Positions 3,465 to 27,241 of a stretch of 32,000 nucleotides of DNA are shown piece by piece (the first letter of the stretch is position 1; each line of letters opens with the position of its first letter). The stretch lies in the NCBI GenBank assembly GCA_000503875.1, contig CP006913.1, positions 990,001 through 1,022,000 of the forward strand, read 5' to 3'. The translations under genes were made by a program, and so were the position numbers. Under the pieces are notes generated by a model. It had not been told where the DNA came from, did not search any database, and saw nothing but the letters and a program-made list of their open reading frames with translations. This stretch comes from Candidatus Saccharimonadota bacterium. GTDB taxonomy: Bacteria > Patescibacteriota > Gracilibacteria > Absconditabacterales > Absconditicoccaceae.

Positions 3465-3768
3465 TATGCAAAAAATAGTAGAAGATAAACTAATGACTGT
3501 CTATGATCCAGAATTCCCTATGGTAGATATTTTTACCCTAGGATTAATATATAAAGTAACAATAAAAGAATCTGAAAAGACAATTCACGTTTTAATGTCT
3601 TTCACAACGCCAGCCTGTCCAATGGCAGAAATGATTCAAGAAATGATTAAAAATGCCATCAGGGAGATCGCACCAGATTTTTCCCTAGACATAGAAATTA
3701 CCTTCGACCCTATGCGATCTCCCTCTATGATCAGAGACGAAGACCTCAAGAAAATGTTTGATATGTAA
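3457..3768 (+). CDS. DUF59 / SufT-like Fe-S cluster assembly protein
   Basis: MNNMQKIVEDKLMTVYDPEFPMVDIFTLGLIYKV...SFTTPACPMAEM...ITFDPM(CGA)SPSMI matches the DUF59 pattern (DPE..vdi..LGliy, T.p.CP, dP.Ws). The internal ATG 3457 was preferred over the track start 3415. Confidence 0.75.
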   Translation: MNNMQKIVEDKLMTVYDPEFPMVDIFTLGLIYKVTIKESEKTIHVLMSFTTPACPMAEMIQEMIKNAIREIAPDFSLDIEITFDPMRSPSMIRDEDLKKMFDM

Positions 3769-5847: not shown

Positions 5848-6000
5848 GGTATATGGGTTATATTTTATAAAAAATGTCAATTTCTTTTACGAAGAATATT
5901 TGACTTATACACAACAAAAAGTTTTTTTCAAGGGAAAAGTTTGAAAAACAATGGTTTTTTGCATATAATAGAAGCAACCTTTATTTAGTAAAACAAAGAT

Positions 6001-6501
6001 ATGAAAATTATGAGAAAAATAGGATACATAGCCCTTCTTTGATTAGTAGGAATATGTAGTGCTCAACTTGAAATTCCTTGAGAAGCTACTATTTTTAATA
6101 GCAATCAAGATCAATATATCAATGCAAACGACATCTCAAATCCAATAAGAGATGGTGCATATACAGCAATTAAAAGCCCAGATGAAAGCAACGAAATTGG
6201 TGGTATACAAGGGACTAACCAAAAAATAGAAGATCACACAGATGCAAGAGAAAAAACATTTACTATAGTAAGAAATTTAATCAATTATTCTCTTGGATTA
6301 TTGAGTTTGGTAGCATTAGTATATATGATTTACCATGGGATTGTTATTTTGACTGCTGCAGGAGATGATGCAAAATACAAACAAGGAATGAAAGGTATTA
6401 AGTTTGGTGCAATAGCACTTATTGGAGTCTGATTTAGTCGAATTATTGTAAGTTCAATATTCTGGCTTATATTTGAAGTAATATTAAAACCATCATTATA
6501 A
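6001..6501 (+). CDS. T4SS-pilin-like (TrbC/VirB2-type) small membrane protein, paralog 1
   Basis: Signal peptide, then a hydrophilic region, then two C-terminal TM helices around a basic loop: NYSLGLLSLVALVYMIYHGIVILTAAGDDAKYKQGMKGIKFGAIALIGVGFS(CGA)IIVSSIFW. This layout recurs in CPR T4SS-pilin-like proteins. Confidence 0.55.
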
Positions 6502-6526
6502 TTTTTATTTTATTTATTCAATAATT

Positions 6527-7048
6527 ATGAAGAATATAATTAGTTATTTCAAAAGAATTTCTCTTTGGGGGATAACAATAGGGGCTATAGCATTATCAAT
6601 AACTACTTCTATTTCTTATGGACAAGGCGATGAAGGATTTTATTATGGAACAGAATATGAAGGAACTATGCTTAATGACGAGCAAAAAACAGATTTAGCT
6701 CAAGTTATAAAAGACGATAGCATTAACACAGAAGATACAACACTTTTGTACAAAATTCGTCAATATTTTAGATTAACAGGGACTGAAACATATGATCAAG
6801 ACAAGCCAGCAACAGGATATATCAACATGATAATCAATATGGCCTTGGGATTGACAAGTTTCATCTCATTAATCTTGATTCTTTACGCATTTTATCTTAT
6901 GTTCTTCGAAAAAGGTGAAGAAGGCTTCGCAAAAGCAAAAAAAATACTTATCGGAGTAGCTATAGCATTGGTGGTCATGGCTCTTTCTTGGCTAATAGTA
7001 AGTTTCTTTTTTGAAATATATACAACTCAAGCAGTTAAAAACATTTAA
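6527..7048 (+). CDS. T4SS-pilin-like (TrbC/VirB2-type) small membrane protein, paralog 2
   Basis: Same architecture as the upstream gene: NMALGLTSFISLILILYAFYLMFFEKGEEGFAKAKKILIGVAIALVVMALSWLIVSFFFEIY. SWLIV aligns with S(CGA)IIV of paralog 1. Confidence 0.55.
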   Translation: MKNIISYFKRISLWGITIGAIALSITTSISYGQGDEGFYYGTEYEGTMLNDEQKTDLAQVIKDDSINTEDTTLLYKIRQYFRLTGTETYDQDKPATGYINMIINMALGLTSFISLILILYAFYLMFFEKGEEGFAKAKKILIGVAIALVVMALSWLIVSFFFEIYTTQAVKNI

Positions 7049-7881: not shown

Positions 7882-9018
7882 ATGCCAATTATCATAATCT
7901 GAATAATATTAATTGCATTCTGACTCCTCGCAATCTATAGTGTAAGTATCCACGAATCTTTTACGCTAACATTAAAATTAATTGCAAATGGAAACCGGAC
8001 CTGAGATCCATCAAATTATTTCTATTTTCTCAGACAATTAAAAAACATAGCAATAGCAGTTATAATAGCATTAGGAGTATATATATTGCCTCTTAAATTT
8101 TTTCAAAAAAACAGAAATATCGTAATTATAGCTGTTATTCTAATGGTTTTACAAATTTTCGTATTTGTACCAGGAATAGGAATGGAGCTTAATGGTGCAA
8201 GATGATGGATTTCTCTACCATTCTTTCCAAGTATACAACCAGCCGAATTCTTTAAATTGGGATATGTTTTTTTCTTTTCTTCTCGGTTATTAAAAAAACG
8301 TGATATCATCAATCAAAAACAATTTTTTTCCAATTTCATTGTAATAAATATCTTATTATTGTGAATTTTTCTCCTTATACCCGATCTTTGAACATTACTT
8401 ATTTTGGGATTAACATCACTAACACTTTGTCGATATATCTGAACAAAACTTAAATATATTCTCTATTTATTATGATGAGCCTTAATATCAGGAATTTTGA
8501 TGGGAAGTATAGCCGGAATGATTAGTCCAAAATTTGATTATATTCAAAAAAGATTTACTTATTTTCTAGATTCTAGTGTCGATGAACAAAAGAGATGAGT
8601 ATGACGACAAAATCAGCAAGCACTTATAGCCGTTGGTTGATGAGGTCTTTTTGGAAAAGGATATGGAAAATGATTGCAAAAATTTGGATATATTCCAGAA
8701 GCGCAAAGTGATTTTATTTTCGCTGCATATTCAGAAGAAATTGGTTTCGTAGGAAATATAGCTTTGCTGAGTTTATATTTTTATTTAGCATACTATTTTC
8801 TTTCTAGATTACATACAATAAAAAATGAATATAATAAAACAATTGGAGTCTGAATTATTGCTCTTATTATGATTCAAGTATTTGTAAATATAGGAGTGAA
8901 TGTTAAAATCATGCCAAATACAGGATTAACATTACCATTTATTAGTTATTGAGGAACAGCATTAATGGTAAATTGTATTGAAATTATACTCCTTTACAAA
9001 ATTCTCAAAGAGAAATAG
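7882..9018 (+). CDS. SEDS-family peptidoglycan glycosyltransferase (FtsW/RodA/SpoVE)
   Basis: Invisible in the track (about 17 in-frame TGA). Translation shows NGARGWISLPFFPSIQPAEFFKLG, G(CGA)QNQQALIAVGGGGLFGKGYGKG...YIPEAQSDFIFAAYSEEIGFVG and PNTGLTLPFISYGGTA, the hallmark SEDS motifs. Stop TAG 9016-9018. Confidence 0.85.
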
Positions 9019-9019
9019 C

Positions 9020-11749
9020 ATGGGAAAAAATCAGAATTTTTATCAATATTCAATAGACCAAACACTAGATTTTTTTTGATCAACAAAAAATGGGCTATCA
9101 ACAAAAGATGCTCAAAAAATAATTGAAACGCATTGAAGAAACATATTACAAACGACCACAAAAAATAAAAACTGGCTTCGTTTTTTCGTACAATTCAAAG
9201 ATGTATTAATTCTTTTGCTTACTTGAGCTATGCTTATTTCTGTATATCTCAAAGATTATAGAGGTGCAGGAATATTAGGCGCAATTATTGTTATTAATGC
9301 AATTATCTGATATATTCAAGAAGCAAAAGCAGAAAAAATAATGGAATCTCTCAAAAAAATGATTCATCCAAATGCAAAAGTAAAAAGAGATGGTTTATTA
9401 TCAGAAATATCTTGAGAAGAAATTGTCGTTGGTGATATTGTATATATAGAAGAAGGTGATAGCATTCCTGCTGATATAAGAATTATAGAAAATAATAATT
9501 TACAAACCAATGATTTTGCACTGACAGGTGAATCAAGTCCTGTAAGTAAATTTACTCACGCAATAAAAGGAGATGTTGTTCTTTGAGAAAGAAATAATTG
9601 TATATTTATGGGAACAACAGTTGCAACAGGATTTGCACGAGGAATCGTTATAGCAACAGGTATGGATACACAATTAGGTAAAATAGCAAATCTTTCACAA
9701 GAGCAAATCCAGGAAAGTTCTCCTCTTGAAAAAGAAATGAAGAACATAGCAAAAAGACTTACTATTTGAACAATTGTTTTGTGTGGAATACTTATAATCA
9801 TAGCTTTATTAGCCAATTTTTCCTTGCAGGAAGCTTTTATTTTTGGAGTAGGAATTGCTGCAGCTATGGTTCCTCAATGACTTCCTGCACAAGTAAATAT
9901 AGCTTTATCTCTAGCAGCAGGCAGACTAGCAAAAAACAATGCTTTAGTAAAACAACTTGCATGTGTAGAAAGTCTTGGTGCTGTTAATATTATTTGTACC
10001 GACAAAACAGGAACCTTGACCAAAAATGAAATGACGGTCAAAAGAATTTTTATCAATAATCAACGAATTGAAATCTCTGGTTCTGGTTACGAACCAAAAG
10101 GAGAAATCAGAATAAACCAAACACTTAGCACTCAGCACGTAACACAACTATTGCACGCAGGGATTTTTGCATCCAATGCAAAAGTTAATCCACCCGACGA
10201 AGAACATTTAGATTGGTATTGTTTAGGCGATCCAACCGAAGGAGCACTAATTACTTTAGCTAAGAAATATAATATTGATACAGAATATCTCTATACACAA
10301 CACAAACAATATCATCAATTCTGATTTGATTCGGTAAGGAAAATGATGTCCTCTGTTCGTGATGTTGATGGGAAAACATTAGTATACGTCAAATGAGCTC
10401 CAAACGAATTACTCGAACACTGCACAACATATCATAATGGGAAAGAACAAAAGAATCTGACAAAAAAACAAAAAGAACGTATAATCAAAGCAATAGATGA
10501 AACATCAAAACAAGCCATGAGAAATATTGCATTTGCTTATAAAGAAATAGATACATACAACAAAGACACGACAATGGAGCTGGCAGAATCTGATCTCTGT
10601 TTCCTCGGATTCGTAGCTATCATAGACCCTGCCAGACCAGAAGTCCCAGCGGCGGTCGGAGCAGCTCGCGACGCGAGAATCAAAATTATTATGATTACCG
10701 GTGACTACGGCCCGACCGCCGAAGCTATTGCTGAAAATATAGGATTAGACGATGGAAAAATGAAACTTATTCCAAACGAAGAATTACAACATTTATCAGA
10801 CAAAAAGCTTTCTCTCATAATAAGACAGAATCGTTCAATTATTTTTTCTAGAGTAGCCCCCGAAGACAAACTCAGAATAGTAAAACTTCTCCAAAAAGAA
10901 CACAATATAATAGCAGTAACTTGAGATTGAATAAACGATGCTCCTGCACTAAAACGCGCTGATATTGGTGTCGCTATGTGAAGAATTGGAACTGATGTAG
11001 CCAAAGAAGCTTCAAAAATAATTCTCCTTGATGATAGTTTTAGTACCTTGGTCTATGCTATCCAAGAATGAAGAATTATTTATCAAAATCTCAGAAAAAC
11101 AATATTGTCTTGTATTACTTCAAATGGCGGAGAACTTTTTGCCATCCTTATTAGTCTAGTAATGAAAACATTTACAGGTATTCCTATAGCAATAAGCGCA
11201 GTACAAATTCTTGCAATTGATCTTATTTGAGAAATGGGTCCTTTGACTGCTCTTACCCGAGATCCTGGGCAAAAAAACATTATGAAAGGTCCGCCAAGAA
11301 ACCCCGCCAATCATATTATGAACAAAAAAAATATTATTGATATCCTATGGTCCTGAGCATTAATGTGATGATTAGCGTATCTAACATATTATATATATCT
11401 TCATCTAAATTCCGCTTCACCACAAACATTGATAAATACAGACAATACCTATATGATAGGAACATCTATAACGTATACGACTATTGTTTTCTGCCAATAT
11501 GCAAATATTATATCTCGCAGAGCTTGAGAAGTTCAACATATATTTACAAAATATTTTTGGACAAACAAAAAATTACTAGTATCTTTTTTATTAGGAATTT
11601 GAGCTATTCTTATTTTGATTTATTCTCCTTTACACAATTATTTTTGATTCTGAATAATGGATATACAAGATTGGTTATTTCCATTAAGTTGATGAATACT
11701 CTTTCTTATTATACGTGAATGATATAAACAAATTATTAAAAGAAAGTAA
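9020..11749 (+). CDS. P2-type cation-transporting P-type ATPase
   Basis: Frame 2 is continuous from ATG 9020 to TAA 11747-11749. Motifs: [46 protein letters not shown] (both Gly of TGDG are TGA, 10922 and 10928), plus about 10 TM helices. Start is 1 nt after the upstream stop. Confidence 0.85.
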
Positions 11750-11823
11750 ATTACAAAATTTTTCAAAATTCTTTGCGTCTACTATTACAGAAAGAAACTT
11801 TTTATTTATTAATCTCTTTCATT

Positions 11824-12327
11824 ATGAAAAAATTACTAGTATTAGCTGTCTTACTTGGAGCAAGTTTCACTACATTAACATTTGCTCAAGAAGAAACTAC
11901 AACAACCACTGGTGAGGGTTCATCAGGAACTGTTATCACTACAACAGGAGACACAACTACAGGAAGTACAGTAACAGGACACAAAGCTAAACGACAAGAA
12001 AAAAGAGCACAACAACTCCAAAAGAAAGAACAAATTATGCAAAAGAAAGCTGTTAAAGTAGGTGCTAGAGCAGAAAGATTAAGAGGTATCATCGCAAAAA
12101 TCAATGATGGATTTCTTAAAAGTCTTTTAACTCAAATTGATCATCTCTTTGCAAAAGCTAAAACTGAAGAATCAAAAGTAATGATTTGAGATATTAAACT
12201 TCTTATTCAAGATAAATTAGGATTGTTATCAGGATCTACAGTTGAAGATCCAACAGGAACTGGTTCTACAGTAACTACTCCAACAGATGACGACGATGAA
12301 GATGAAGACGAAAATGAAGATGACTAA
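11824..12327 (+). CDS. Secreted protein: Thr-rich, central basic coiled region, poly-acidic tail
   Basis: Signal peptide MKKLLVLAVLLGASFTTLTFAQ. One TGA read-through at 12187. Ends ...DDDDEDEDENEDD, TAA 12325-12327. Confidence 0.55.
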
Positions 12328-12461: not shown

Positions 12462-13601
12462 CTAAACTGGTTTAGTATAAAATTCTTTTTTCCACTTTTC
12501 CAACATCGTATGTAAGTATGAAATATTATGAAGGCCTAATAAAATTCCACCCAACATTTCACCTTCTCTCATCAAATGATGAATATACGCTCTACTAAAG
12601 TTTTTACACGTATAACACTGACAGGTATCAGTCAGAGGCGCGAAATCTTCTCTATATTGAGCATTAGTTATTTTTATATTTCCATTATCAGAAAATCCAA
12701 TCCCATGTCTTCCTATTCTCGTTGGTTGCACACAATCAAACATATCAAATCCGTTTTCTATGGCATGCAAAATATCTTCTGGAGTTCCAACTCCCATCAA
12801 ATACCTTGGTTTGTCAGAAGGTAACTTATCACCAACATATTCAACCACATCACGAATAAGTTCTTTCGTTTCTCCAACACTCACTCCTCCAACAGCAATT
12901 CCGTCCCAAGCATATTGGCTAAGAAAATCTATAGATTCCTGTCTTAAGTCATGAAAAACACCTCCTTGAACGATAGGAAACAAGACACCACGAGCCTCAT
13001 CATATTTTGGTTTAAAATGATCAAATGCTCTTTTTGCCCAACGATGAGTCATATCCATATGTTTTTTGATAGTAGTTTTATCAGCTCACGAAGGAGAACA
13101 GACATCCAATACCATCATAATATCACTTCCAAAATTACATTGAATATCTACGACATTTTCTGGCGTAAACATATGCTTAGATCCATCTATAGGAGATGCA
13201 AATTTTACACCTTCTTCTCTAAGCTTCATACCAACAACATGACTATTTTGTTCACGATCATTTCTTTTGGATAGTCCCAAACTAAACACCTGAAATCCTC
13301 CACTATCCGTCAAAATAAGTCCATCTCGATGTTCAAAGGTATGAAGTCATCCAGCTTTTTTAATCAATTCATCACCTGGACGAAGATACAAATGAAAAGT
13401 ATTTGCCAAAATTAATTTAATCGTATTTTCATGACCCAGATAATTAGGATCTTTCAGAAGATCTAGAGGAATTCCTTTGATAGTAGCTTTGGTTCCAACA
13501 GGCATAAAAACTGGCGTAGACAAAGTCACTCCATTTAGCGTTATTTGTCCAACCCTCGCTTTTCCTTTTTGCTTCAGAACTTTAAAATCTAATTTTGACA
13601 T
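12462..13601 (-). CDS. tgt: Queuine tRNA-ribosyltransferase
   Basis: Three track ORFs in one frame, joined by TGA at 13347 and 13086. Motifs: [19 protein letters not shown](CGA)[32 protein letters not shown], CxCxxC (CQCYTC) zinc motif. Confidence 0.9.
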
Positions 13602-13618
13602 ATATTAAAAACAATAAA

Positions 13619-15355: not shown

Positions 15356-18340
15356 ATGGCAACGCTTAAGGAAATTGGAGAAAAACGACAGAAAAAATGG
15401 AAAGAAAGCAATCTTTACCAAGTCAAAGAAGACAAAAATAAGAAAAAATTTTATGTACTAGAAATGTTTCCATACCCTTCTGGAGCTGGATTACACGTAG
15501 GACATCCAAAAGGATATATCGCTGGAGATGTTTTGGCACGCAAAAAAATGCTAGAAGGTTTTTCTGTTCTTCATCCAATGGGTTTTGACACTTTCGGTCT
15601 TGGAACAGAACAATATGCTATAGACAACAAAATGAAACCACAAGTGGTTGCAGAAAAAAATATAAATACATTTATCAACCAGCTCAAAGATCTAGGATTG
15701 ACCTATGATCGAGATAGATCTTTCAGTACTGCCGACCCTGATTATTACAAACGAACACAACGAATCTTTTTGAAAATGTACACGCATTACTACGATGAAA
15801 AAGAAGCCAAGGCCAAACCTATTACTGAATTAGAAAAACAACTCAAACAACAAAACAAATCTGAATCAGAAATCAAAGATATCATCGACAATCAACGTCT
15901 TGCGTATGTTGATTACAAACCTATCAATCGATGTCCAAAATGTATGACAGGGCTTGCCAACGAAGATCTTGACGATGGAAAATGTGAACGCTGTGGATCA
16001 GAAGTAGAACAAAAACCTATGAGACAACGAGTACTCAGAATTACCAAATATGCAGATAGATTGATTACAGGATTGGACAATTTGAATTGGGACGAATCTA
16101 TGAAAGATCTAGAAAGAAACCGAATTGGAAAATCCGAAGGAACTCAATTTAAGATGAATATCAAAGATTCAAAAGACCTTGCATTCGAAGTCTACACGAC
16201 CCGTGTTGATACCGTTTTTGGTATGTCTTTTGTCGTAATGGCACCAGAACATCCATTAGTAGATCAGATTACAACCAATGAATACAAAGCAAATATAGCT
16301 GCCTACAAAGAACAAGCTAAGTACAAATCTCAACTCGAAAGAACAGAACTTCAAAAAGAAAAAACAGGAGAATTCACGGGCGCATATGCTATCAACCCTT
16401 TCAATGGAGAAGAAATCCCTGTCTACGTTGGAGACTATGTCCTCGCAAATTATGGAACAGGAGTAGTAATGGCAGTCCCTGCACATGATGAAAGAGATTT
16501 TGAGTTTGCTAAGAAATATAATATTCCGATCGTTCATGTTATATGACCATCTTTTGCAAAAAAACACGAATGAGCAGAAGCAAAATTATCAGGATATGGG
16601 ATGATTTACGATGAAAAAGAAAACAAATTTTTAGTATGAAATTCCATTGTAGAAGGAAATAGATCTTTATTACGACTACCATGATGAACTATAGAAAAGT
16701 GAGAAAGTATTATAGAAGGAACGCTTCGCGAAATCATTGAAGAAACTGGCTATACAGATTTGGAATTCGTAAATGAAGTTTGTTGTTGCCAATCTTTTTA
16801 TCATACATGATGATCCAAAAACACACGAAGAGAAAACAATGCTAAATTTTTATTCTTCAAACTCAAATCAGATAAAAGACAAGAAAAAAAATTAACAGAA
16901 CATGAAGAAGACACACCAATAATCAAAGTTTCAATCGAAGAACTATTTGAAAGCACAAAAAACCAACCAGATAAAAAAGATGAATTCAATGGGAAAAAAG
17001 AAAGTGATTTTTTCAAAATAGAAATGCTCCAAAAATATATGACAGGTAATGCTGCTTACACAGAAAAAGGAATCCTCGTAAATTCCTGAAATTTCTCATG
17101 ACTCACTTCTGACGAGGCTATCGCAGCGATGCAAAAACGATTATCAGAAAATAATATTGGCGGAAAGAAATCCAACTTCAAAATCCAAGACCGAGTATTC
17201 TCCCGCCAAAGATATCGAGGAGAACCTTTTCCAGTTATCTTCTGTGATGACTGTGGAATCGTTCCTATGGACGAATCAGACCTTCCTCTTACTCTTCCAG
17301 ACGTCGAGAATTACGCTCCAACAGGAACAGAAGAATGACCGCTTGCTGCCATCGATGAATGGATAAACACTACCTGTCCACACTGTGGAAAACCAGCAAA
17401 AAGAGAATCCAACACGATGCCAGGACGAGCAGGTTCTAGTCGATACCGACTCAGATATATGGACAATAAAAACGATAAAGCACTCGTCAGCCCAGAAAAC
17501 GAAAACTATCGAGGCAATGTTGATGTCTATGTTGGAGGTGCAGAACACGTGACCAGACATATGATTTACGCAAGATTTCGACAAAAATTCTTGTTTGATA
17601 TCGGTATTGTTACCAAAGAAGAACCATTCGAAAAATATCATAAAGTAGGATTGATTATGGCAGAAGACGGTCGTAAGATGTCCAAAAGACGATGAAATGT
17701 CGTACTTCCTGACAGCATTATCGAAGAATTTTGAGCTGATACATTGAGAACCTATGAAATGTTTATGGGACCTTTTGATCAAGCTATTTCTCGAAATACC
17801 AATGGGATGAAAGGAATCAAAAAGTTCTTAGATAAAATTATTGCTCTACAAGACAAAATCAAAGAAGGTGACGAGGACAAAAAGACATTAAGTCTCCTCC
17901 ACCAAACAATCAAAAAGCTTACCGAAGATATCGATGGATTTAAATTCAACACAGCTATCGCTCAGTTGATGATTTTGGTAAACCATCTTACCGATCAACC
18001 ATCACTCACCAAAGAAACATTTCAAAATCTTATTATTCTTATAGCTCCATTCGCTCCGCATCTTGCCGAAGAATTATGGGAAACTTTAGGAAACAATTAT
18101 TCTATTTTCACAACATCTGTTTGGCCTAGTTACAACGAAAACTATTTAGTCGCAGATATGGTTACCTTACCCGTTCAATTCAATGGAAAAATGAGAGGTA
18201 CTCTGGAAATGAGTAAAAATGCAGGGGAGAAAGATGTCCTCGATGCTATCGCAGCAGACACAAAACTCTCCGCCCACCTCCCCACAACTCCAAAGAAAAT
18301 TATCTACATCCCAGGAAAAATCATCAACATCATAATGTAG
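15356..18340 (+). CDS. leuS: Leucyl-tRNA synthetase with an inserted Nudix domain
   Basis: Frame 2 is continuous across four track ORFs. Motifs: HVGH (HIGH), TTRVDTVFG (editing domain), AHDERDFEFAKKY, SRQRY(CGA)GEPFP, VGGAEH, KMSK(R)(CGA)(TGA)NVV. More than 12 CGA codons lie at Trp positions conserved in LeuRS. Confidence 0.93.
16547..17050 (+). other. About 165-aa Nudix hydrolase domain inserted in-frame in LeuRS
   Basis: Lies between ...KYNIPIVHVI and AYTEKGILVNSG (about 14 residues apart in E. coli LeuRS as I recall it). Canonical Nudix box GTIEKGESIIEGTLREIIEETGY at 16685-16753, preceded by LL(CGA)LPG. Confidence 0.75.
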
Positions 18341-20170: not shown

Positions 20171-21892
20171 TTATAAAAAACCTTTAATTTGTTCTAGCAA
20201 TTTGTGCTGTTTTATTGGTTTGGCAATATAACCAACACAACCTGCCTTTAAAGCTGCTTGTTCAGTTCCATTCACAAAAGCCGTTTGCAAAATAATTAGT
20301 GAATCCGGCTTATGTTGAAGAATTTCTTTTGTGGCTTTTATTCCAGCCTCAGAATCTCCTTGCATTTTACAATCCATAAGAATCAAATCTATTTTTTGGT
20401 CAGACAATACAAGACTTATTACATCTTTAGTATTCTTAACAAACAATAGTTTTGCTTTAGTGGATTCTAACATAGTTTTTAACAACAATAGATTAATTTC
20501 TTCATCATCAACAATAAGAATTGTTTTGCCTATAAAATCAAAATCTAAACTCTTCTGTTCATAATGATTATTTACAGACAATAGTTTTGGAATTTTAATA
20601 GGACGATAAGGTACTTTGAAACGAAATACGCTTCCAGAAGGAATATTGTCTTCTATCCAGATCTCTCCTCCCATTTGACCTACAAGGCTTTTGCAAATAG
20701 AAAGACCTAATCCTTGTCCATGCTCTAATAGCCTATCATCCATAATACGATAAAATTTCTCAAAAACCATTTCCTTGTATTCTTGACTAATACCATCTCC
20801 TGTATCCCTAACTTCAAATTCTAAAAAATTATTTGAAACACTATAGCCAAAGGTTATTTTCCCCTGTTTTGTATATTTTATGGCATTAGTAAGTAAATTA
20901 TCAATAATTTGTTGAATTCGTTTGGGATCCAAAAGAGCTTTCACATCAGGATTATTATCATGCAAAACAAAATCAATTGCTTCTAATTTTTCCGATGGAA
21001 AAGTTTCCCTAAAATTTACAAATATACTTTGAAAAAGTATATGTAAATCAACTTCTTTAATATTCAATTCAACATTACCAGATTCAATTCTAGCAATATC
21101 AAGGATCTCATCAATCAAATTTAACAATTTCTGACCATTTGATCCAATTATTTCACAGTGATGCCGAACCTTAGGATCTTCATTGTGATATAATAATCCT
21201 GCGAATCCCATAATAGCATTCATGGGTGTTCTGATTTCATGAGACAAATTAGCTAGAAATTCGGACTTCAAATTATTCGCTTTTTCAGCATCTTGTTTTG
21301 CCTGAAGAAGTTCGATTTCCAAGCCAATCATGATTGATACATGTTTCAAGATAAGTAAATCAAGTTGTGAATAAGTTGATTCATTTTCATAATTTTGAAT
21401 AGCAACTATCCCAATAGACTTCTTTTCTGAGGTAAACAATGGCGCAGCCATCCATATAGCTAGAGGGTGACCTACTTGTTTAACCTCACCTAATTCAACG
21501 AGATCTTTAAAGATTTGCTTATCTATCAAACAAGATTCTCCTTTTCTTCTAACATAATCAGTTAATGAACCTTCCAGTGATAAATAAGCGCCATCATCAA
21601 CTTTATCATATTTATCTACATGATAAGGAAAATAAAATTCTTGCCTATGATAATCATATAATGCTATATAAAAATTTTCACATGCAACAATTTTCATTAG
21701 CTCTTGATGTATAATCTTACAAAATTCAGTAAGACTAGAGACCCTATTAACACTCTTTGTAATTTTATAAGAAAATTCTTCCATCTTTTTTGAATAAGAA
21801 ATTTTTTCTTTTAAAATCACATTTTTCTCCCTCAATTCACTAACTTCCGATTTTAAACGAAGAATTTCTTCGTCATCTTCTGATTTTCCCAT
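20171..21892 (-). CDS. Cytoplasmic hybrid sensor histidine kinase (coiled coil-GAF-HisKA-HATPase_c-REC)
   Basis: Uninterrupted 573-aa ORF even in the standard code. H-box [12 protein letters not shown]-box [11 protein letters not shown]-boxes DTGDGIS and GQGLGLSI, C-terminal receiver ILIVDDEE...LILMDCKM...AKP. No TM segment. Confidence 0.9.
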
Positions 21893-22027: not shown

Positions 22028-22055
22028 TTGCATTTAAAAAATTTCTGACTATACT
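22028..22055 (+). promoter_or_regulatory. Putative sigma-70-type promoter of the csoR-cop operon
   Basis: TTGCAT (22028-22033), 16-nt spacer, TATACT (22050-22055), 42 nt upstream of the csoR ATG. Confidence 0.45.
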
Positions 22056-22056
22056 A

Positions 22057-22075
22057 CCTATACCATAGGTATAGG
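22057..22075. promoter_or_regulatory. Putative CsoR operator
   Basis: Perfect 8-3-8 inverted repeat cctatacc-ata-ggtatagg starting 2 nt after the -10 box. The TACC...GGTA core resembles described CsoR operators. Confidence 0.5.
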
Positions 22076-22097
22076 ATTTTATGTACTCACCAATCAT

Positions 22098-22373
22098 ATG
22101 AAAAAGAATCAAGAAAAAATACTTATCTCGCTCAAGAAAGCCAAAAGTTCACTAGAAAAAATTATTTCTATGATTGAAAGCAATCACTATTGTATCAAAG
22201 TAATTCAACAAAATCTGGCTGTAGTAGGGCTTCTCAAGTCAGTTAATCTCCAACTTTTGGAAGACCATCTAGGATGTTGTTTTGTGGATTCTATCAAATC
22301 CAACGACAAAAAAAGACAAAACGAAATGATCCAAGAAATCCTAACTATTGTGAAGACAGCTCAGAATAAATAA
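22098..22373 (+). CDS. csoR: CsoR/RcnR-family copper-sensing repressor
   Basis: A 91-aa helical protein with ...NHYCIKVIQQNLAVVGLL...EDHLGCC..., i.e. the C-H-C ligand pattern (Cys32, His57, Cys61) of Cu(I)-sensing CsoR. Confidence 0.8.
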   Translation: MKKNQEKILISLKKAKSSLEKIISMIESNHYCIKVIQQNLAVVGLLKSVNLQLLEDHLGCCFVDSIKSNDKKRQNEMIQEILTIVKTAQNK

Positions 22374-22391
22374 TTTATTTTCAACATTCCC

Positions 22392-22778
22392 ATGAAAAGA
22401 CTCATCTGAATCCTCAGTGGAATAATCTACCTTTTCTCGGCAAATGCACTTGTACACGCAAGTTTCATGGGTTTTTTCAATAATGAATCAGAACACACTA
22501 CAACACATTGTCACTCAACACAACCAACCGACCAACAAAAAGACAACATAGATTGTTGTGAATTAGTATATTCCAACGAATATTTTACCAACAGAATAGA
22601 TATTCAAAACAACTATAAAGCTTATGTTGCTATAGTAATATCCATTGATGATATCAAAAATATCGAGAAAACAAATCCAGAAAAAATAACAATAATTAAT
22701 AACCCACCCTGATGGAAGACAGACAATAAATATAACAATTTCTCTGATTTAGTCTGAATTGTTGTTAATACAATATAA
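22392..22778 (+). CDS. Secreted Cys/His-motif protein, possible metal-binding
   Basis: Signal peptide MKRLIGILSGIIYLFSANALVHA, then TTTHCHSTQP...NIDCCELVY. Three TGA are read through. Sits inside the cop operon. Confidence 0.5.
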
Positions 22779-22837
22779 AATATATAATTTTCTTAAAGCT
22801 TTGAAGAAAGCCAGAATTTTATATATTTTTTTTACAA

Positions 22838-24136
22838 ATGAAAAAAACAATATACATCAAAGGAATGCATTGCGCGTCTTGCGAAATGATTATCAAAGAT
22901 CGCGTAGAAAATATCAAAGGAGTACAAGTAGAAAATATTTCTGCAAAAAACGGAAAACTTGATCTAGAAATAGTCAATGAAAATCTTTTAAAAAAAATTA
23001 ATGAAGAAATTAAAAAAGCCTGATATACATCGACTACAGAGCCAACACAACCAACAGAACAAAATAAAAAGATATGAACACTTATTATAGCAAGTATAGT
23101 AATTCTTTTACTCGTACTACTAGGGAATAAACTAAATATTGCTCAACATATTCCCTCTTGAGATGGAAAAATATCCTATGGAATAGCACTTCTCACAGGA
23201 CTTATTGCTTCAGTTTCCACGTGTTTAGCCATAGTTGGAAGTATTGTCCTTGGGTTTTGAGCTTATGCTGACAATACGAAATGAACAAAGTGACTTCTCA
23301 AAACCCACTTATCATTCCACGCAGGAAGAATAGGCGGATTTTTTGTTGGTGGGGCGATACTTGGATTGCTAGGGCAGACCTTTTCTCTCTCACTAAATAT
23401 GACAAGCATGGTCACAATAATCGTGGGAATTATCGTTGTACGAATGGGATTGTATATTCTAAAAATCGTACCAAGTATAAGCTCTTTTGGTGTTCATCTG
23501 CCAAAAAAACGAACAGAGAAAATACTTACAACAAAAAATCCTCTCTTTGCGCCAATAGTAGGAGCACTGACTTTTTTTCTTCCTTGTGGATTTACCCTTT
23601 CTATGCAATTAGTAGCAATCACTAGCGGAAACCCTCTCCAAGGATGACTAATAATGGCGATATTTGCTCTAGGAACAATGCCCGTCTTGTTTGCACTTGG
23701 ATTAGGAAGTTCTTATATCAAAGAAAAGAAATTCACGCTCTTACATACAATTATTTGAGCAATAATTATTTTCTTTGGGATTTTTATGATCAATAATGGG
23801 CGAACATTACTTTGAACAGCACCACAAAAACCAGTTCAAGAAGAATTTAGTTCCAACATAGCGTACGAAACCATACACATAGAACACGATGGATATCAAA
23901 CAATTCCAGAAAAAATCCTTCTCCAAGCAGGAAAAAATTATGAACTTATTATCACGCCAAATAGCAATGGAAGAGGTTGCATGGTAAATATGCTTATCCC
24001 AAAACTTGATAGAACAATTCGTCCAATCAAAAAAGACCTGCCTATTGTCTATAGATTTACTAATATCCAAAAAGGACAATACGCTATCGTCTGTGGAACC
24101 ATGGGAATGTATCAAGGACAAATTCTTGTCCAATAA
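22838..24136 (+). CDS. HMA domain - DsbD_2/TauE-like membrane domain - cupredoxin-like domain fusion
   Basis: N-terminus IYIKGMHCASCEMI (MxCxxC). Membrane core with STCLAIVG and FFLPCGFT motifs. C-terminus LLQAGKNYELIITPNSNGRGCMVNMLIP...GQYAIVCGTMGMYQGQILVQ is a cupredoxin-type beta domain. About 9 TGA read as Gly. Confidence 0.7.
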
Positions 24137-24208
24137 TTCCATTTTGTCATTACGACTTTGTCAATTGGAGTCAGAATTCAGATTTTTATTTATTCTTATC
24201 CTATTATC

Positions 24209-27200
24209 ATGACCAAACCCAAAATAATAACCATAGATATCGAAGGAATGCACTGTTCCTCTTGTGCTCTTTTTATAGAAAACACGCTCAAAAAAACAGA
24301 GTGAGTACAAGAAGCCAATGTAAATTTTTCTTCTGCACAAGCAATTATCAAAGCCAATGAAGGCATCGAAAAAACAATTATAGACCTGATCAACAAAGCA
24401 GGATACAAAGGAACGATTGGAGGCGATCAAACAAATGAAACTGAGAAAAGAACAAGAGAAACAAATTATCGAAAAAGAAAATTCTGGGCATCATTTTTCT
24501 TAAGCATACCTATGATTACTTTTATGCTCTATGATCTTCTCCCAACAATACTTCCTGAAAAAGCAATAATTATGCCATGGGCTGCAATTATTTCGCTGAT
24601 ATGTACAACACCAATCTTATTTTTCATAGGCGCTGATTTTTTCAAAGGAGCACGATCAGCACTCAAAATGAAAACATTCAACATGTATAGCCTAATAGCT
24701 ATAGGAACAGGTGTTGCTTATCTTTACAGCGTATATCAACTAGGAACATTTTTTTATCAAACACAATCAATACTCTGACTCAATGGAATGATGGTTCCCA
24801 ATATTTATTTCGAAGTCGCTGGATTGCTTATTATGTTTGTTCTTCTAGGAAAATATTTGGAAGCAAAAGCCAAAGGATCTACCTCTCAGGCTATCGCAAA
24901 ACTCATCGGCCTTGCTCCCAAAACCGCCAAAGTAAAAAGAGGGGATACTTTCATAGATGTAGCAATTGATCAGGTCAAAAAATGAGACATCATTCTGGTG
25001 AAACCAGGAGAAAAGATACCAACAGATGGAATCCTTATCTCAGGACATTCAAGTATTGACGAATCTATGCTTACCGGAGAAAGTATCCCCGTAGAAAAAG
25101 AACGTGGATCAAAAGTTTTTGGAGGAACTATCAATAAGTTAGGAAGCTTTGAAATGGAAACTACCAAAATAGGAAACGAAACGATGCTTGCTCAAATCAT
25201 CAAACTGATCCAAGAAGCACAATGATCCAAAGCGCCTATCCAATGATTTGCAGATAAAATATCAGGAATCTTTGTCCCTGTTGTAATAGGTATTGCTATC
25301 ATTACCTTTTGAATTCGATACTTTGCTTTATGAGCAAGTTTTGAAACTTCTTTATTATATTTTGCAGCAGTAATCGTTATCGCTTGTCCATGTGCATTAG
25401 GTCTTGCTACCCCAACAGCTATTATGGTGGGAACAGGGAAAGGAGCTGAAAAAGGAGTTTTAATTAAAGGAGGAGAACCTCTAGAAAATCTCTGCAAAGT
25501 AAACACGATTGTCTTCGACAAAACAGGAACTATAACCGAAGGAAAACCAGAGGTTACAGATATTATTGCAACCAATGGACACGAAGTAACAAAAATTCTT
25601 GAAATAGCAATTAATCTAGAGTCCAATTCAGAACATCCATTAGCAGAAGCTATTGTCAGACACGGAAAAGAAAAAAACATTTGAAATCACAAAGTTCTGA
25701 ATTTTCAAGCAATTCCTGGAAAAGGAGTAGGCGGAGAAATCAACGGACAAAACTATTTCTTTGGAACCAAAACATTGCTCACAGAAAAAAACATTCCCAT
25801 CATTAATCCAGAAAAAATTAATCAATTAGAAAGCGAAGGAAAAACCGTTATGCTTCTTGCAACGGATGAGAAAATGATAGGAATCATAGCAGTCGCTGAT
25901 ATCTGCAAAACAAGCTCTGCACAAGCTATCAAAAGATTACAAGAAATGGAAATTAATCTCTATATGATTACCTGAGACAATGAAACAACCGCACAAGCAA
26001 TTGCTAGACAAGTTGGTATCAAAAATATTTTTGCTCAAGTACTTCCGGAACACAAAGCCTCCAAAATCAAAGAACTCCAAAAACAAGGCTATATCGTTGC
26101 TATGGTTGGTGATGGAATCAATGACGCTCCTGCTCTCACCCAAGCCGATGTCGGAATCGCAATGGGCTCAGGAACAGATATTGCTATGGAATCAGGAAAC
26201 GTCATTATTATGAAAAACAATCTCAACGATGTTATCACTGCCATCAAACTTAGCAAAGAAACGGTAAGCAAAATCAAACAAAATATGTTCTTTTCATTGT
26301 TATATAATAGTTTAGGAATCCCTATTGCAGGATGAGCATTCGCTGTATTTGGACTAACCCTCAAACCAGAATTCGCAGGATTAGCAATGGCCTTAAGTTC
26401 GGTTTCCGTGGTACTAAATTCCCTCTTATTGAAATTCTTTCATCCAACAAGAAGAAACCGACTATCACTTTTTGCTCCGCTAATTATGACTATTGCATTC
26501 CTCTGACTTTTCCGAAATTTTGCTCAAATAGGAAATGGACAACAACTAGTTTACTCAAAAATATCTTCAGGACAAAAAGCTGAAATCACAGAATATATAA
26601 TCAACACACCAAACAAAATCTGATTTACTCCCGACGGTATTCCTAAGATATTAATAGGAAATAATACGATCATAAATTGACTTTCTATTCTCGAATGATC
26701 CTGAGCTTTCGACTGATCCCAGACACCCCAGATGATCATAGGATTCAAAGAAGCTCAAATGATGAAAGACGAAGGATTGATCAAAGGAGTGTGAGAGAAT
26801 CTCTCTGGATTTTTTGGCCTCCCTACGGTAAAAATTGTGGGAATTCTCACTCCCACAAACACCTTCTTGGACGAAGTTCACATCGTAAACACACCAGGAT
26901 TCAACGGATTATCCATCCAAGATTCCCTCTTTCTCACAAAAAATCCAGAAAATGATATTAAAATATTCTACCTCTACGACGAAAAAAGCATTCCTTTGAA
27001 ATTCAAAAAAGAGATTACTACCCAACCGACAACATATGAAAAAGATGGGACAAAGTATATACCACTATCTATCGGATATGACGAAGCCCAAATGATGATA
27101 GAAGAAAATCTATTTCAAAATGTTTGAGACACTATCACAGACCTCTTTGGCAACGATGTTATCATTACGAGCATAGGCAAAAAAACCTACACCGCACTAG

Positions 27201-27241
27201 ATATGATGCACTTTGTCCCAAAAGATCAGTGGAAAAAATAA
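24209..27241 (+). CDS. copA: Cu(I)-translocating P1B-type ATPase with about 260-aa C-terminal extension
   Basis: Motifs: GMHCSSCA (HMA), GA(CGA)SALKM, TGESIPV, CPC ([11 protein letters not shown]), DKTGTIT, SEHPLA, MITGDN (Gly is TGA 25973), [10 protein letters not shown]. The frame stays open past the usual end (...[11 protein letters not shown]) through one more TM helix and a soluble domain to TAA 27239-27241. Confidence 0.85.

Follow-up and report, generated by a model that had tools for sequence, protein, structure and literature searches.

The 32 kb stretch of DNA analysed here (‘the window’; GC content 0.29-0.37), from an uncultivated bacterium of the SR1/Absconditabacteria, uses a genetic code that almost certainly departs from the standard one twice, to judge from comparisons of its leucyl-tRNA synthetase (LeuRS) gene and of other genes with their relatives: UGA would be read as Gly, and CGA, together probably with the rare codon CGG, as Trp beside UGG. 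Arginine appears to be written only with AGA, AGG, CGU and CGC. That CGA encodes Trp on top of UGA encoding Gly had been put forward in a sequence-only reading of the window, and is supported here by outgroup alignment columns, a codon substitution matrix and solved structures. It is a correct re-observation rather than an extension, because GCA_003543185.1, the same assembly, is already listed with CGA = Trp in the source data of Shulgina and Eddy (eLife 2021, PMC8629427). Their Codetta predictions, in which Absconditabacteria have both CGA and CGG reassigned to Trp, are the survey to which the sequence-only reading had referred, and the assembly appears on their ‘Absconditabacteria CGR->Trp’ sheet; their Figure 4-source data 1 gives it UGA = Gly, CGA = Trp and CGG = ‘?’, and the clade-level statement for CGA and CGG has been repeated in a 2026 NAR (Nucleic Acids Research) paper. 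As a discovery, CGA = Trp is nothing new beyond Shulgina and Eddy 2021; the added value lies in a codon-level demonstration that CGA and CGG swap only with TGG, and CGT and CGC only with AGA and AGG, and further in weak evidence that CGG, too, means Trp in this genome, and in the finding of one gene, a histidine kinase, that is off-pattern.

Comparison over 21.7 kb showed no difference between the window and either contig DPJE01000001.1 (190 kb) of GCA_003543185.1 or an independent ENA re-assembly. The assembly is a bin from a sediment metagenome, only ~50% complete and rejected by GTDB quality control, and it is this provenance that would speak for a chimeric assembly, systematic errors in sequencing or a mistaken reading frame. 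Such an artefact is nevertheless extremely improbable, given the agreement between the NCBI contig and the re-assembly, the full-length homology that backs the frames, and the recurrence of the CGA pattern in independently assembled relatives from other samples. The long open reading frames (ORFs) of the window are broken by TGA alone. Every CGA codon cited in the sequence-only reading (15386-17579 in LeuRS; 3715, 8605 and 24653; 13326-13328 on the minus strand) lies in frame, as do the cited CGG codons at 7996, 8284 and 21164-21166 (minus strand).

The LeuRS gene, identified by its Pfam domains (tRNA-synt_1, tRNA-synt_1_2, Anticodon_1) and by a match of E = 3e-179 to T. thermophilus LeuRS (1h3n), was aligned as DNA with ten close relatives, the closest of which are labelled Absconditabacteria or candidate division SR1, and with 30 standard-code outgroups (Bacteroidota, Clostridia, Elusimicrobia, Proteobacteria and other members of the Candidate Phyla Radiation, CPR). 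Columns in which at least 80% of the outgroups shared the same residue were taken as conserved, giving 239 columns, 15 of them Trp and 11 Arg. In the window, the conserved Trp columns held CGA (11) or TGG (4), and the conserved Arg columns held AGA (7), CGC (3) or CGT (1) and no CGA. Viewed from the codons, CGA fell on Trp at 11/11 conserved columns and TGG at 4/4, so that TGG is still a Trp codon, as had been claimed, while AGA, CGC and CGT fell on Arg at 11/12 and on Trp at none (Fisher p = 2.8e-6). The same held when the 11 LeuRS genes of the clade were pooled: Trp was matched at 56/56 conserved columns with CGA, at 1/1 with CGG (relative L003) and at 97/97 with TGG, and the conserved Arg columns contained 118 AGA, AGG, CGC or CGT codons and one GCG, with CGA at 0. 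Codons TGA at conserved columns coincided with Gly in 2/2 cases in the window LeuRS and in 54/56 over the clade's LeuRS genes.

Taken one by one (Table 1), the 19 CGA codons of LeuRS, 12 of which the sequence-only reading had listed as standing at Trp positions, have Trp as the commonest outgroup residue at 13 sites and Phe/Tyr with some Trp at two; one of the remaining sites is variable, one is mostly Lys, and two lie in a clade-specific insertion. Alignment with T. thermophilus LeuRS gave a similar distribution, the 17 alignable sites falling on Trp (14), Phe/Tyr (2) and Lys (1), with the two others again within the insertion.

Codon exchange between orthologues was recorded in a substitution matrix, for which orthologues of 17 window genes, drawn from 13 related loci, were aligned with them and the codons read from DNA. 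Query CGA codons (240 comparisons) were paired with TGG 113 times, with CGA 110 times and with CGG once, 224/240 in all, and query TGG codons with TGG (78), CGA (18) and CGG (2). The partners of query AGA (341), AGG (32), CGT (88) and CGC (46) were each other and Lys codons, never CGA or TGG. The CGN box thus falls into two clean halves, CGY going with AGR (Arg) and CGR with UGG (Trp). TGA swapped with GGA and GGT in the orthologues. These analyses of DNA replaced a tally of database proteins at the CGA columns, which had returned a mixture of Trp and Arg, confounded by table 4 translations (TGA = Trp) and by translations with CGA as Arg.

That CGA still means Arg, in a lineage that has swapped many of its conserved Trp residues for Arg, has the standard code as a default in its favour, plus a single histidine kinase site, and nothing else. 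It is barely credible, being already refuted by the LeuRS outgroup comparison and the substitution matrix. Among close relatives the columns in question alternate only between TGG and CGA, and they never take AGA, AGG, CGT or CGC, even though AGA is by far the commonest Arg codon; moreover, conserved Arg columns are never CGA, and it is implausible that 15 invariant Trp positions of LeuRS should all be tolerant of Arg. The earlier observation that conserved arginines avoid CGA was borne out both in the 11 Arg columns of LeuRS and in the MurC RR pair (CGC at 175, AGA at 178). Editing of CGA to UGA in the RNA was rejected on first principles, as it would yield Gly rather than Trp.

Outside LeuRS, the CGA codons that had been placed at Trp positions in Tgt and the DUF59 protein indeed lie opposite Trp in solved structures, and that of the pilin-like gene lies opposite the Trp of its neighbouring paralogue. 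The FtsW codon at 8605, in a position where Tyr or Trp was said to be usual, falls opposite Tyr in P. aeruginosa FtsW. For CopA the claim stood in part, a CGA opposite Trp being found at 25316 while the cited codon at 24653 is opposite Phe. The CGA at 346 in MurC, opposite Phe/Leu, is not diagnostic.

Table 1. Positions in the window of the LeuRS gene, of CGA and CGG codons, and of associated features; ‘outgroups’ are the 30 standard-code LeuRS genes and ‘relatives’ the clade's orthologues.
Feature	Positions	Strand	Observation
LeuRS gene	15356-18340	+	994 codons: 19 CGA, 5 TGG, 13 TGA, 0 CGG
CGA, LeuRS codon 11	15386-15388	+	outgroups Trp 26/30; relatives TGG 7, CGA 3
CGA, LeuRS codon 119	15710-15712	+	outgroups Trp 30/30; relatives TGG 7, CGA 3
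CGA, LeuRS codon 133	15752-15754	+	outgroups Trp 28/30; relatives TGG 8, CGA 2
CGA, LeuRS codon 136	15761-15763	+	outgroups Trp 27/30; relatives AGT 7 (L003, L006-L011), CGA 2, TGG 1
CGA, LeuRS codon 192	15929-15931	+	outgroups Trp 27/30; relatives CGA 10/10
CGA, LeuRS codon 225	16028-16030	+	outgroups Trp 30/30; relatives TGG 7, CGA 3
CGA, LeuRS codon 256	16121-16123	+	outgroups Trp 30/30; relatives TGG 8, CGA 2
LeuRS insertion, ~175 codons, Nudix domain	16544-17068	+	Pfam PF00293, 35.2 bits (cut-off 21.1)
CGA, LeuRS codon 440, in Nudix insertion directly before ‘LPGG’	16673-16675	+	insertion-bearing relatives TGG 1, CGA 1
CGA, LeuRS codon 491, in insertion	16826-16828	+	relatives TGG 1, CGA 1, TAT 2
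CGA, LeuRS codon 595	17138-17140	+	outgroups variable (Asp/Phe/Tyr/His/Lys); T. thermophilus Trp; relatives TGG 8, CGA 2
CGA, LeuRS codon 613	17192-17194	+	outgroups Trp 25/30; relatives CGA 10/10
CGA, LeuRS codon 621	17216-17218	+	outgroups Trp 30/30; relatives TGG 7, CGA 3
CGA, LeuRS codon 691	17426-17428	+	outgroups Phe 17, Trp 12, Tyr 1; relatives TGG 7, CGA 2
CGA, LeuRS codon 696	17441-17443	+	outgroups Trp 29/30; relatives TGG 7, CGA 2
CGA, LeuRS codon 698	17447-17449	+	outgroups Phe 15, Tyr 11, Trp 2; relatives TGG 7, CGA 2
CGA, LeuRS codon 719	17510-17512	+	outgroups Trp 20/30; relatives TGG 7, CGA 2
CGA, LeuRS codon 742	17579-17581	+	outgroups Trp 13, Phe 6, Met 5; relatives TGG 8, CGA 1
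CGA, LeuRS codon 779, ‘KMSK-R-CGA-GN’	17690-17692	+	outgroups Lys 18, Trp 4, Arg 3; relatives CGA 9, AGA/CGT 0
CGA, LeuRS codon 813	17792-17794	+	outgroups Trp 30/30; relatives TGG 8, CGA 1
CGA in DUF59 protein gene	3715-3717	+	opposite Trp in 3/3 structures 1uwd, 2cu6, 3lno (‘DPPW’)
CGA in small membrane (pilin-like) protein gene	6439-6441	+	opposite Trp in adjacent paralogue (‘ALSWLIVS’)
CGG in FtsW	7996-7998	+	relatives CGA 2
CGG in FtsW (‘FFSS-CGG-LLKK’)	8284-8286	+	opposite Tyr in P. aeruginosa FtsW; relatives CGA 1, TGG 1
CGA in FtsW (‘GVG-CGA-QNQQAL’)	8605-8607	+	opposite Tyr in P. aeruginosa FtsW; relatives CGA 2
CGA in tRNA-guanine transglycosylase (Tgt, 12462-13604)	13326-13328	-	opposite Trp in Z. 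mobilis Tgt (‘FMGWDRPILTDSGG’); relatives CGA 3
Hybrid histidine kinase (GAF-HisKA-HATPase-receiver)	20171-21892	-	1 CGA, 1 CGG, no TGA
CGA in histidine kinase (exception), basic residue of N-box lead-in ‘DP.R(I/L).Q..NLL.NA’	20918-20920	-	Arg in 7z8n and HK853
CGG in histidine kinase (exception), polar variable position	21164-21166	-	orthologues AAA, AAG or CAA; PDB homologues Gln or Lys
CGA in CopA (24137-27241), ‘FKGA-CGA-SAL’	24653-24655	+	opposite Phe in A. fulgidus CopA; relatives CGA 2
CGA in CopA	25316-25318	+	opposite Trp in A. fulgidus CopA; relatives CGG 1, CGA 1

The sequence-only reading had made no call for CGG. Two of the three CGG codons in the window are in FtsW (7996 and 8284) and pair in relatives with CGA (three times) and TGG (once), which lends weak support to Trp as the meaning of CGG in this genome. 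The evidence adds to the ‘?’ recorded for the assembly by Codetta, which had too few columns. The third CGG, in the histidine kinase, pairs with AAA, AAG or CAA.

Codon usage was counted over ~30 ORFs (9,763 codons), which contained 52 CGA, 3 CGG, 46 TGG and 197 TGA. The Arg-type codons numbered 171 AGA, 27 AGG, 41 CGT and 12 CGC, AGA thus being the dominant Arg codon (171/251). With CGA counted as Trp, the Trp content of the window is 1.0%, as against 0.47% otherwise. The balance of CGA to TGG was 19:5 in LeuRS compared with 33:41 in the remainder of the window (Fisher p = 0.004), and in the LeuRS genes of the closest relatives it was 14:2 (L004), 20:3 (L005) and 15:7 (L083), compared with 3 CGA to 18-21 TGG in seven TGG-dominant relatives (L003 and L006-L011, one of which is labelled an oral SR1 metagenome-assembled genome, MAG). 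CGA is now ahead of TGG as the Trp codon in the LeuRS of the window's sub-lineage, and CGG remains rare.

A means by which the CGN box could be divided in this way is provided by the published analysis of the clade (PMC8629427). Members of the CPR are without tRNA(ACG), having tRNA(GCG) for CGU and CGC and tRNA(UCG) plus tRNA(CCG) for CGA and CGG; the gene counts given for GCA_003543185.1 are tRNA(ACG) 0, tRNA(GCG) 1, tRNA(UCG) 1, tRNA(CCG) 1 and tRNA(CCA) 1; and the Absconditabacteria clade is reported to have tRNAs of Trp type (G73, no A20), consistent with reassignment. According to this scheme CGU and CGC would be read by tRNA-Arg(GCG), with no tRNA(ACG) or inosine system, and CGA and CGG by tRNA(UCG) and tRNA(CCG) of Trp-type identity, charged by tryptophanyl-tRNA synthetase. 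A tRNA with U34 reads both CGA and CGG, and the two codons would therefore have changed meaning together. The proposal in the sequence-only reading that no inosine-34 tRNA-Arg(ICG) can be in use fits the count of 0 tRNA(ACG) genes published for this assembly, at 50% completeness; the behaviour of CGT and CGC as Arg codons in the window is consistent with reading by tRNA(GCG). After reassignment, we infer, TGG, CGG and CGA would form a chain of synonymous codons (TGG -> CGG -> CGA), and under a symmetric AT bias this chain may approach an equilibrium near CGA = TGG with CGG rare, which the 52, 46 and 3 codons of the window match.

Several points weigh against reading CGA and CGG as Trp, or give it no help. 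The single CGA of the histidine kinase occupies a site that is Arg (65) or Lys (46) in 111/113 more distant homologues and AGA in four orthologues, and the kinase's CGG (21164) falls on a Lys/Gln-type site; two independent assemblies agree on both codons. The KMSK-R-CGA site of LeuRS, where the outgroups have mostly Lys, is uninformative, as are a CGA in CopA (24470, opposite Met in A. fulgidus CopA) and one in MurC (172, opposite Gly/Asn). The authors of PMC8629427 hold that only experiments can establish decoding and exclude ambiguity. No tRNA(UCG) or tRNA(CCG) gene was detected by ARAGORN in the window or in 11 loci (L001 and the loci of the ten relatives), the scan yielding Ser, Thr, Phe, Ile and Pro tRNAs only and, in the window, a single tRNA gene, that for tRNA-Ser(GGA).

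These points bear on the idea that CGA, and CGG with it, is decoded ambiguously, mostly as Trp and in part as Arg, whether through charging of tRNA(UCG) by arginyl-tRNA synthetase or through misreading by tRNA-Arg(GCG). Ambiguity of this kind would resemble that of CUG in some yeasts. The two kinase codons, at a strictly basic and at a Lys/Gln-type site in both independent assemblies, are what it would lead one to look for; CGA is shunned by highly-expressed-looking genes and by the histidine kinase, as would befit a costly or error-prone codon; and the question was left open by the authors of PMC8629427. Even so, just 1/52 CGA codons stands at an Arg-type site, AGA, CGT and CGC never swap with CGA bar that single kinase site, and the essential enzyme LeuRS has CGA at 11/15 of its conserved Trp positions, where substantial insertion of Arg would be hard to tolerate. 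We consider ambiguous decoding improbable.

The histidine kinase also departs from the remainder of the window in its glycine codons, with 0 TGA among 31 (P = 5e-5 at the window's 27% TGA share). Together with its orthologues in four further genomes (L005 13421-15124, L083 1402-3246, L084 4021-5727 and L085 2831-4531) it has 134 Gly codons, none of them TGA, compared with 25-40% TGA in neighbouring genes, and its Trp residues are written TGG only; the protein differs by ~40% among these five Absconditabacteria genomes. A gene without TGA, with Trp as TGG and, at least in the window's copy, with CGA and CGG confined to Arg/Lys/Gln-type sites would thus be read almost identically under the host code and the standard one. 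A recent import, from a donor with the standard code, was considered and rejected: the nearest homologues from outside the clade (Bacteroidales) are only 35-40% identical, six orthologues within the clade reach 56-61% identity, and wherever flanking sequence was fetched these lie in conserved synteny, so that recent transfer fails to explain the missing TGA. Strand bias was likewise rejected, since other minus-strand genes are rich in TGA.

In these loci 96 genes have 15 or more Gly codons; apart from the kinase, TGA is missing only from three orthologues of a 210-codon gene (L006-L008). A run of genes with 0-2 TGA per 15-30 Gly codons and no CGA was seen in the same loci (L006, labelled an oral SR1 MAG, 11550-12179; L007 18457-21050; L008 18082-20675), and we would guess from size and order that these are ribosomal protein genes; the run suggests that reassigned codons are shunned in highly expressed genes. 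Reassigned codons are avoided in some genes, then, the kinase among them. The kinase's lone CGA may be either a recent Arg-to-Trp missense change or a hint of residual Arg reading. It is conceivable, if on balance unlikely, that the reassigned codons are not equivalent to the ancestral ones, as the absence of TGA from the kinase in five genomes might indicate. Were the kinase pattern selected, it would imply either condition-dependent or imperfect decoding of UGA and CGA (residual Arg reading of CGR, for example) or a need for the gene to be readable across codes, and non-equivalence of this sort would go beyond the published description.

Two further features of LeuRS were observed. Its KMSKS loop (17675-17698, plus strand) reads K-M-S-K-R-(CGA)-G-N, the loop of the clade being ‘KMSKRWGN’ if CGA is Trp. 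The Nudix insertion, a matter apart from codon reassignment, is placed at the C-terminal hinge of the CP1 editing domain, flanked by residues that align with 362 and 375 of the T. thermophilus enzyme, and its Nudix box at 16685-16753 is intact (G-x5-E-x7-REIIEETGY; GGTIEKGESIIEGTLREIIEETGY). Across the window LeuRS and 120 clade homologues, this site carried no insertion in 78, 40-77 residues in nine and 140-191 residues in 34; a strict Nudix box was present in 22/34 of the long insertions (Trp being counted as Gly where table 4 had been used), and one relative also had a PF13366 (GxxExxY) domain. No paper describing the LeuRS Nudix insertion was found in the literature.

Elsewhere in the window, the two adjacent small paralogous membrane proteins of pilin-like type (5992-7048, plus strand) are 33% identical over 67 residues; the Trp that they share is CGA in the first and TGG in the second, which has 0 TGA among 13 Gly codons. 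Adjoining the kinase is a copper-handling cluster (22038-27241, plus strand) comprising a CsoR-type repressor (PF02583), a membrane protein with HMA and DsbD_2 domains, and CopA. The last ~260 of the 1,010 residues of CopA are unmatched in solved CopA structures, alignments stopping near residue 749.

Sense-to-sense codon reassignments are very rare in bacteria, and the present one has consequences for annotation, as translation tables 11, 4 and 25 all mistranslate the genome. NCBI gene calls for GCA_003543185.1 treat TGA as a stop, leaving most genes fragmented, and many of the clade's ENA/Logan translations use table 4 and show Trp at TGA (‘LPWWTIEKWES’ for LPGGTIEKGES), while all show Arg at CGA. 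Gly and Trp positions in the clade's public proteins are thus in systematic error: about half of the window's Trp is written CGA and appears as Arg in public protein databases, and TGA-encoded Gly appears as a stop or as Trp. Mistranslation of this kind affects all work on Absconditabacteria proteins that relies on homology searches, on predicted structures or on inferred function.

Among known codes, NCBI translation table 25, the SR1 and Gracilibacteria code reportedly owed to Campbell et al. in 2013, shares UGA = Gly with the window, in which TGA occurs in frame 197 times and falls on conserved Gly columns. The table differs in keeping CGA and CGG as Arg, by which about half of the window's Trp is mistranslated, and since CGA behaves as Trp, table 25 alone fails to describe this genome. 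The closest match is the Absconditabacteria CGR->Trp code of PMC8629427, with which the window shares clade, assembly, UGA = Gly, low GC content (0.31), Arg led by AGA and, going by the published gene counts, the lack of tRNA(ACG); per 10,000 Pfam-aligned codons, that study gives AGA 289, AGG 21, CGU 45 and CGC 12 for the assembly. It differs in the balance of the Trp codons, the CGA:TGG ratio being 52:46 in the window (19:5 in LeuRS) as against 25.4:56.3 in genome-wide Pfam columns, where CGG stands at 1.7, and in leaving CGG as ‘?’ where the two FtsW codons here pair with CGA or TGG. Reassignment of CGG to Trp in Anaerococcus and in the RFN20 clade of Bacilli, and to Gln in Peptacetobacter (PMC8629427), likewise saw a rare GC-rich CGN codon captured in low-GC genomes, with Trp as the new meaning in 2/3 of these Firmicutes cases (Anaerococcus and RFN20); there, however, only CGG changed, CGA remaining Arg through tRNA(ICG) and tRNA(UCG) being lost, whereas in the window reassignment concerns CGA above all, and an inosine system would be lacking. 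The AGG->Met change of ‘Enterosoma’-type Bacilli is similar in being a sense-to-sense reassignment of an Arg codon that has rebounded to high usage, although codon and amino acid are different and, as to mechanism, an Arg tRNA was inferred to have switched identity there.

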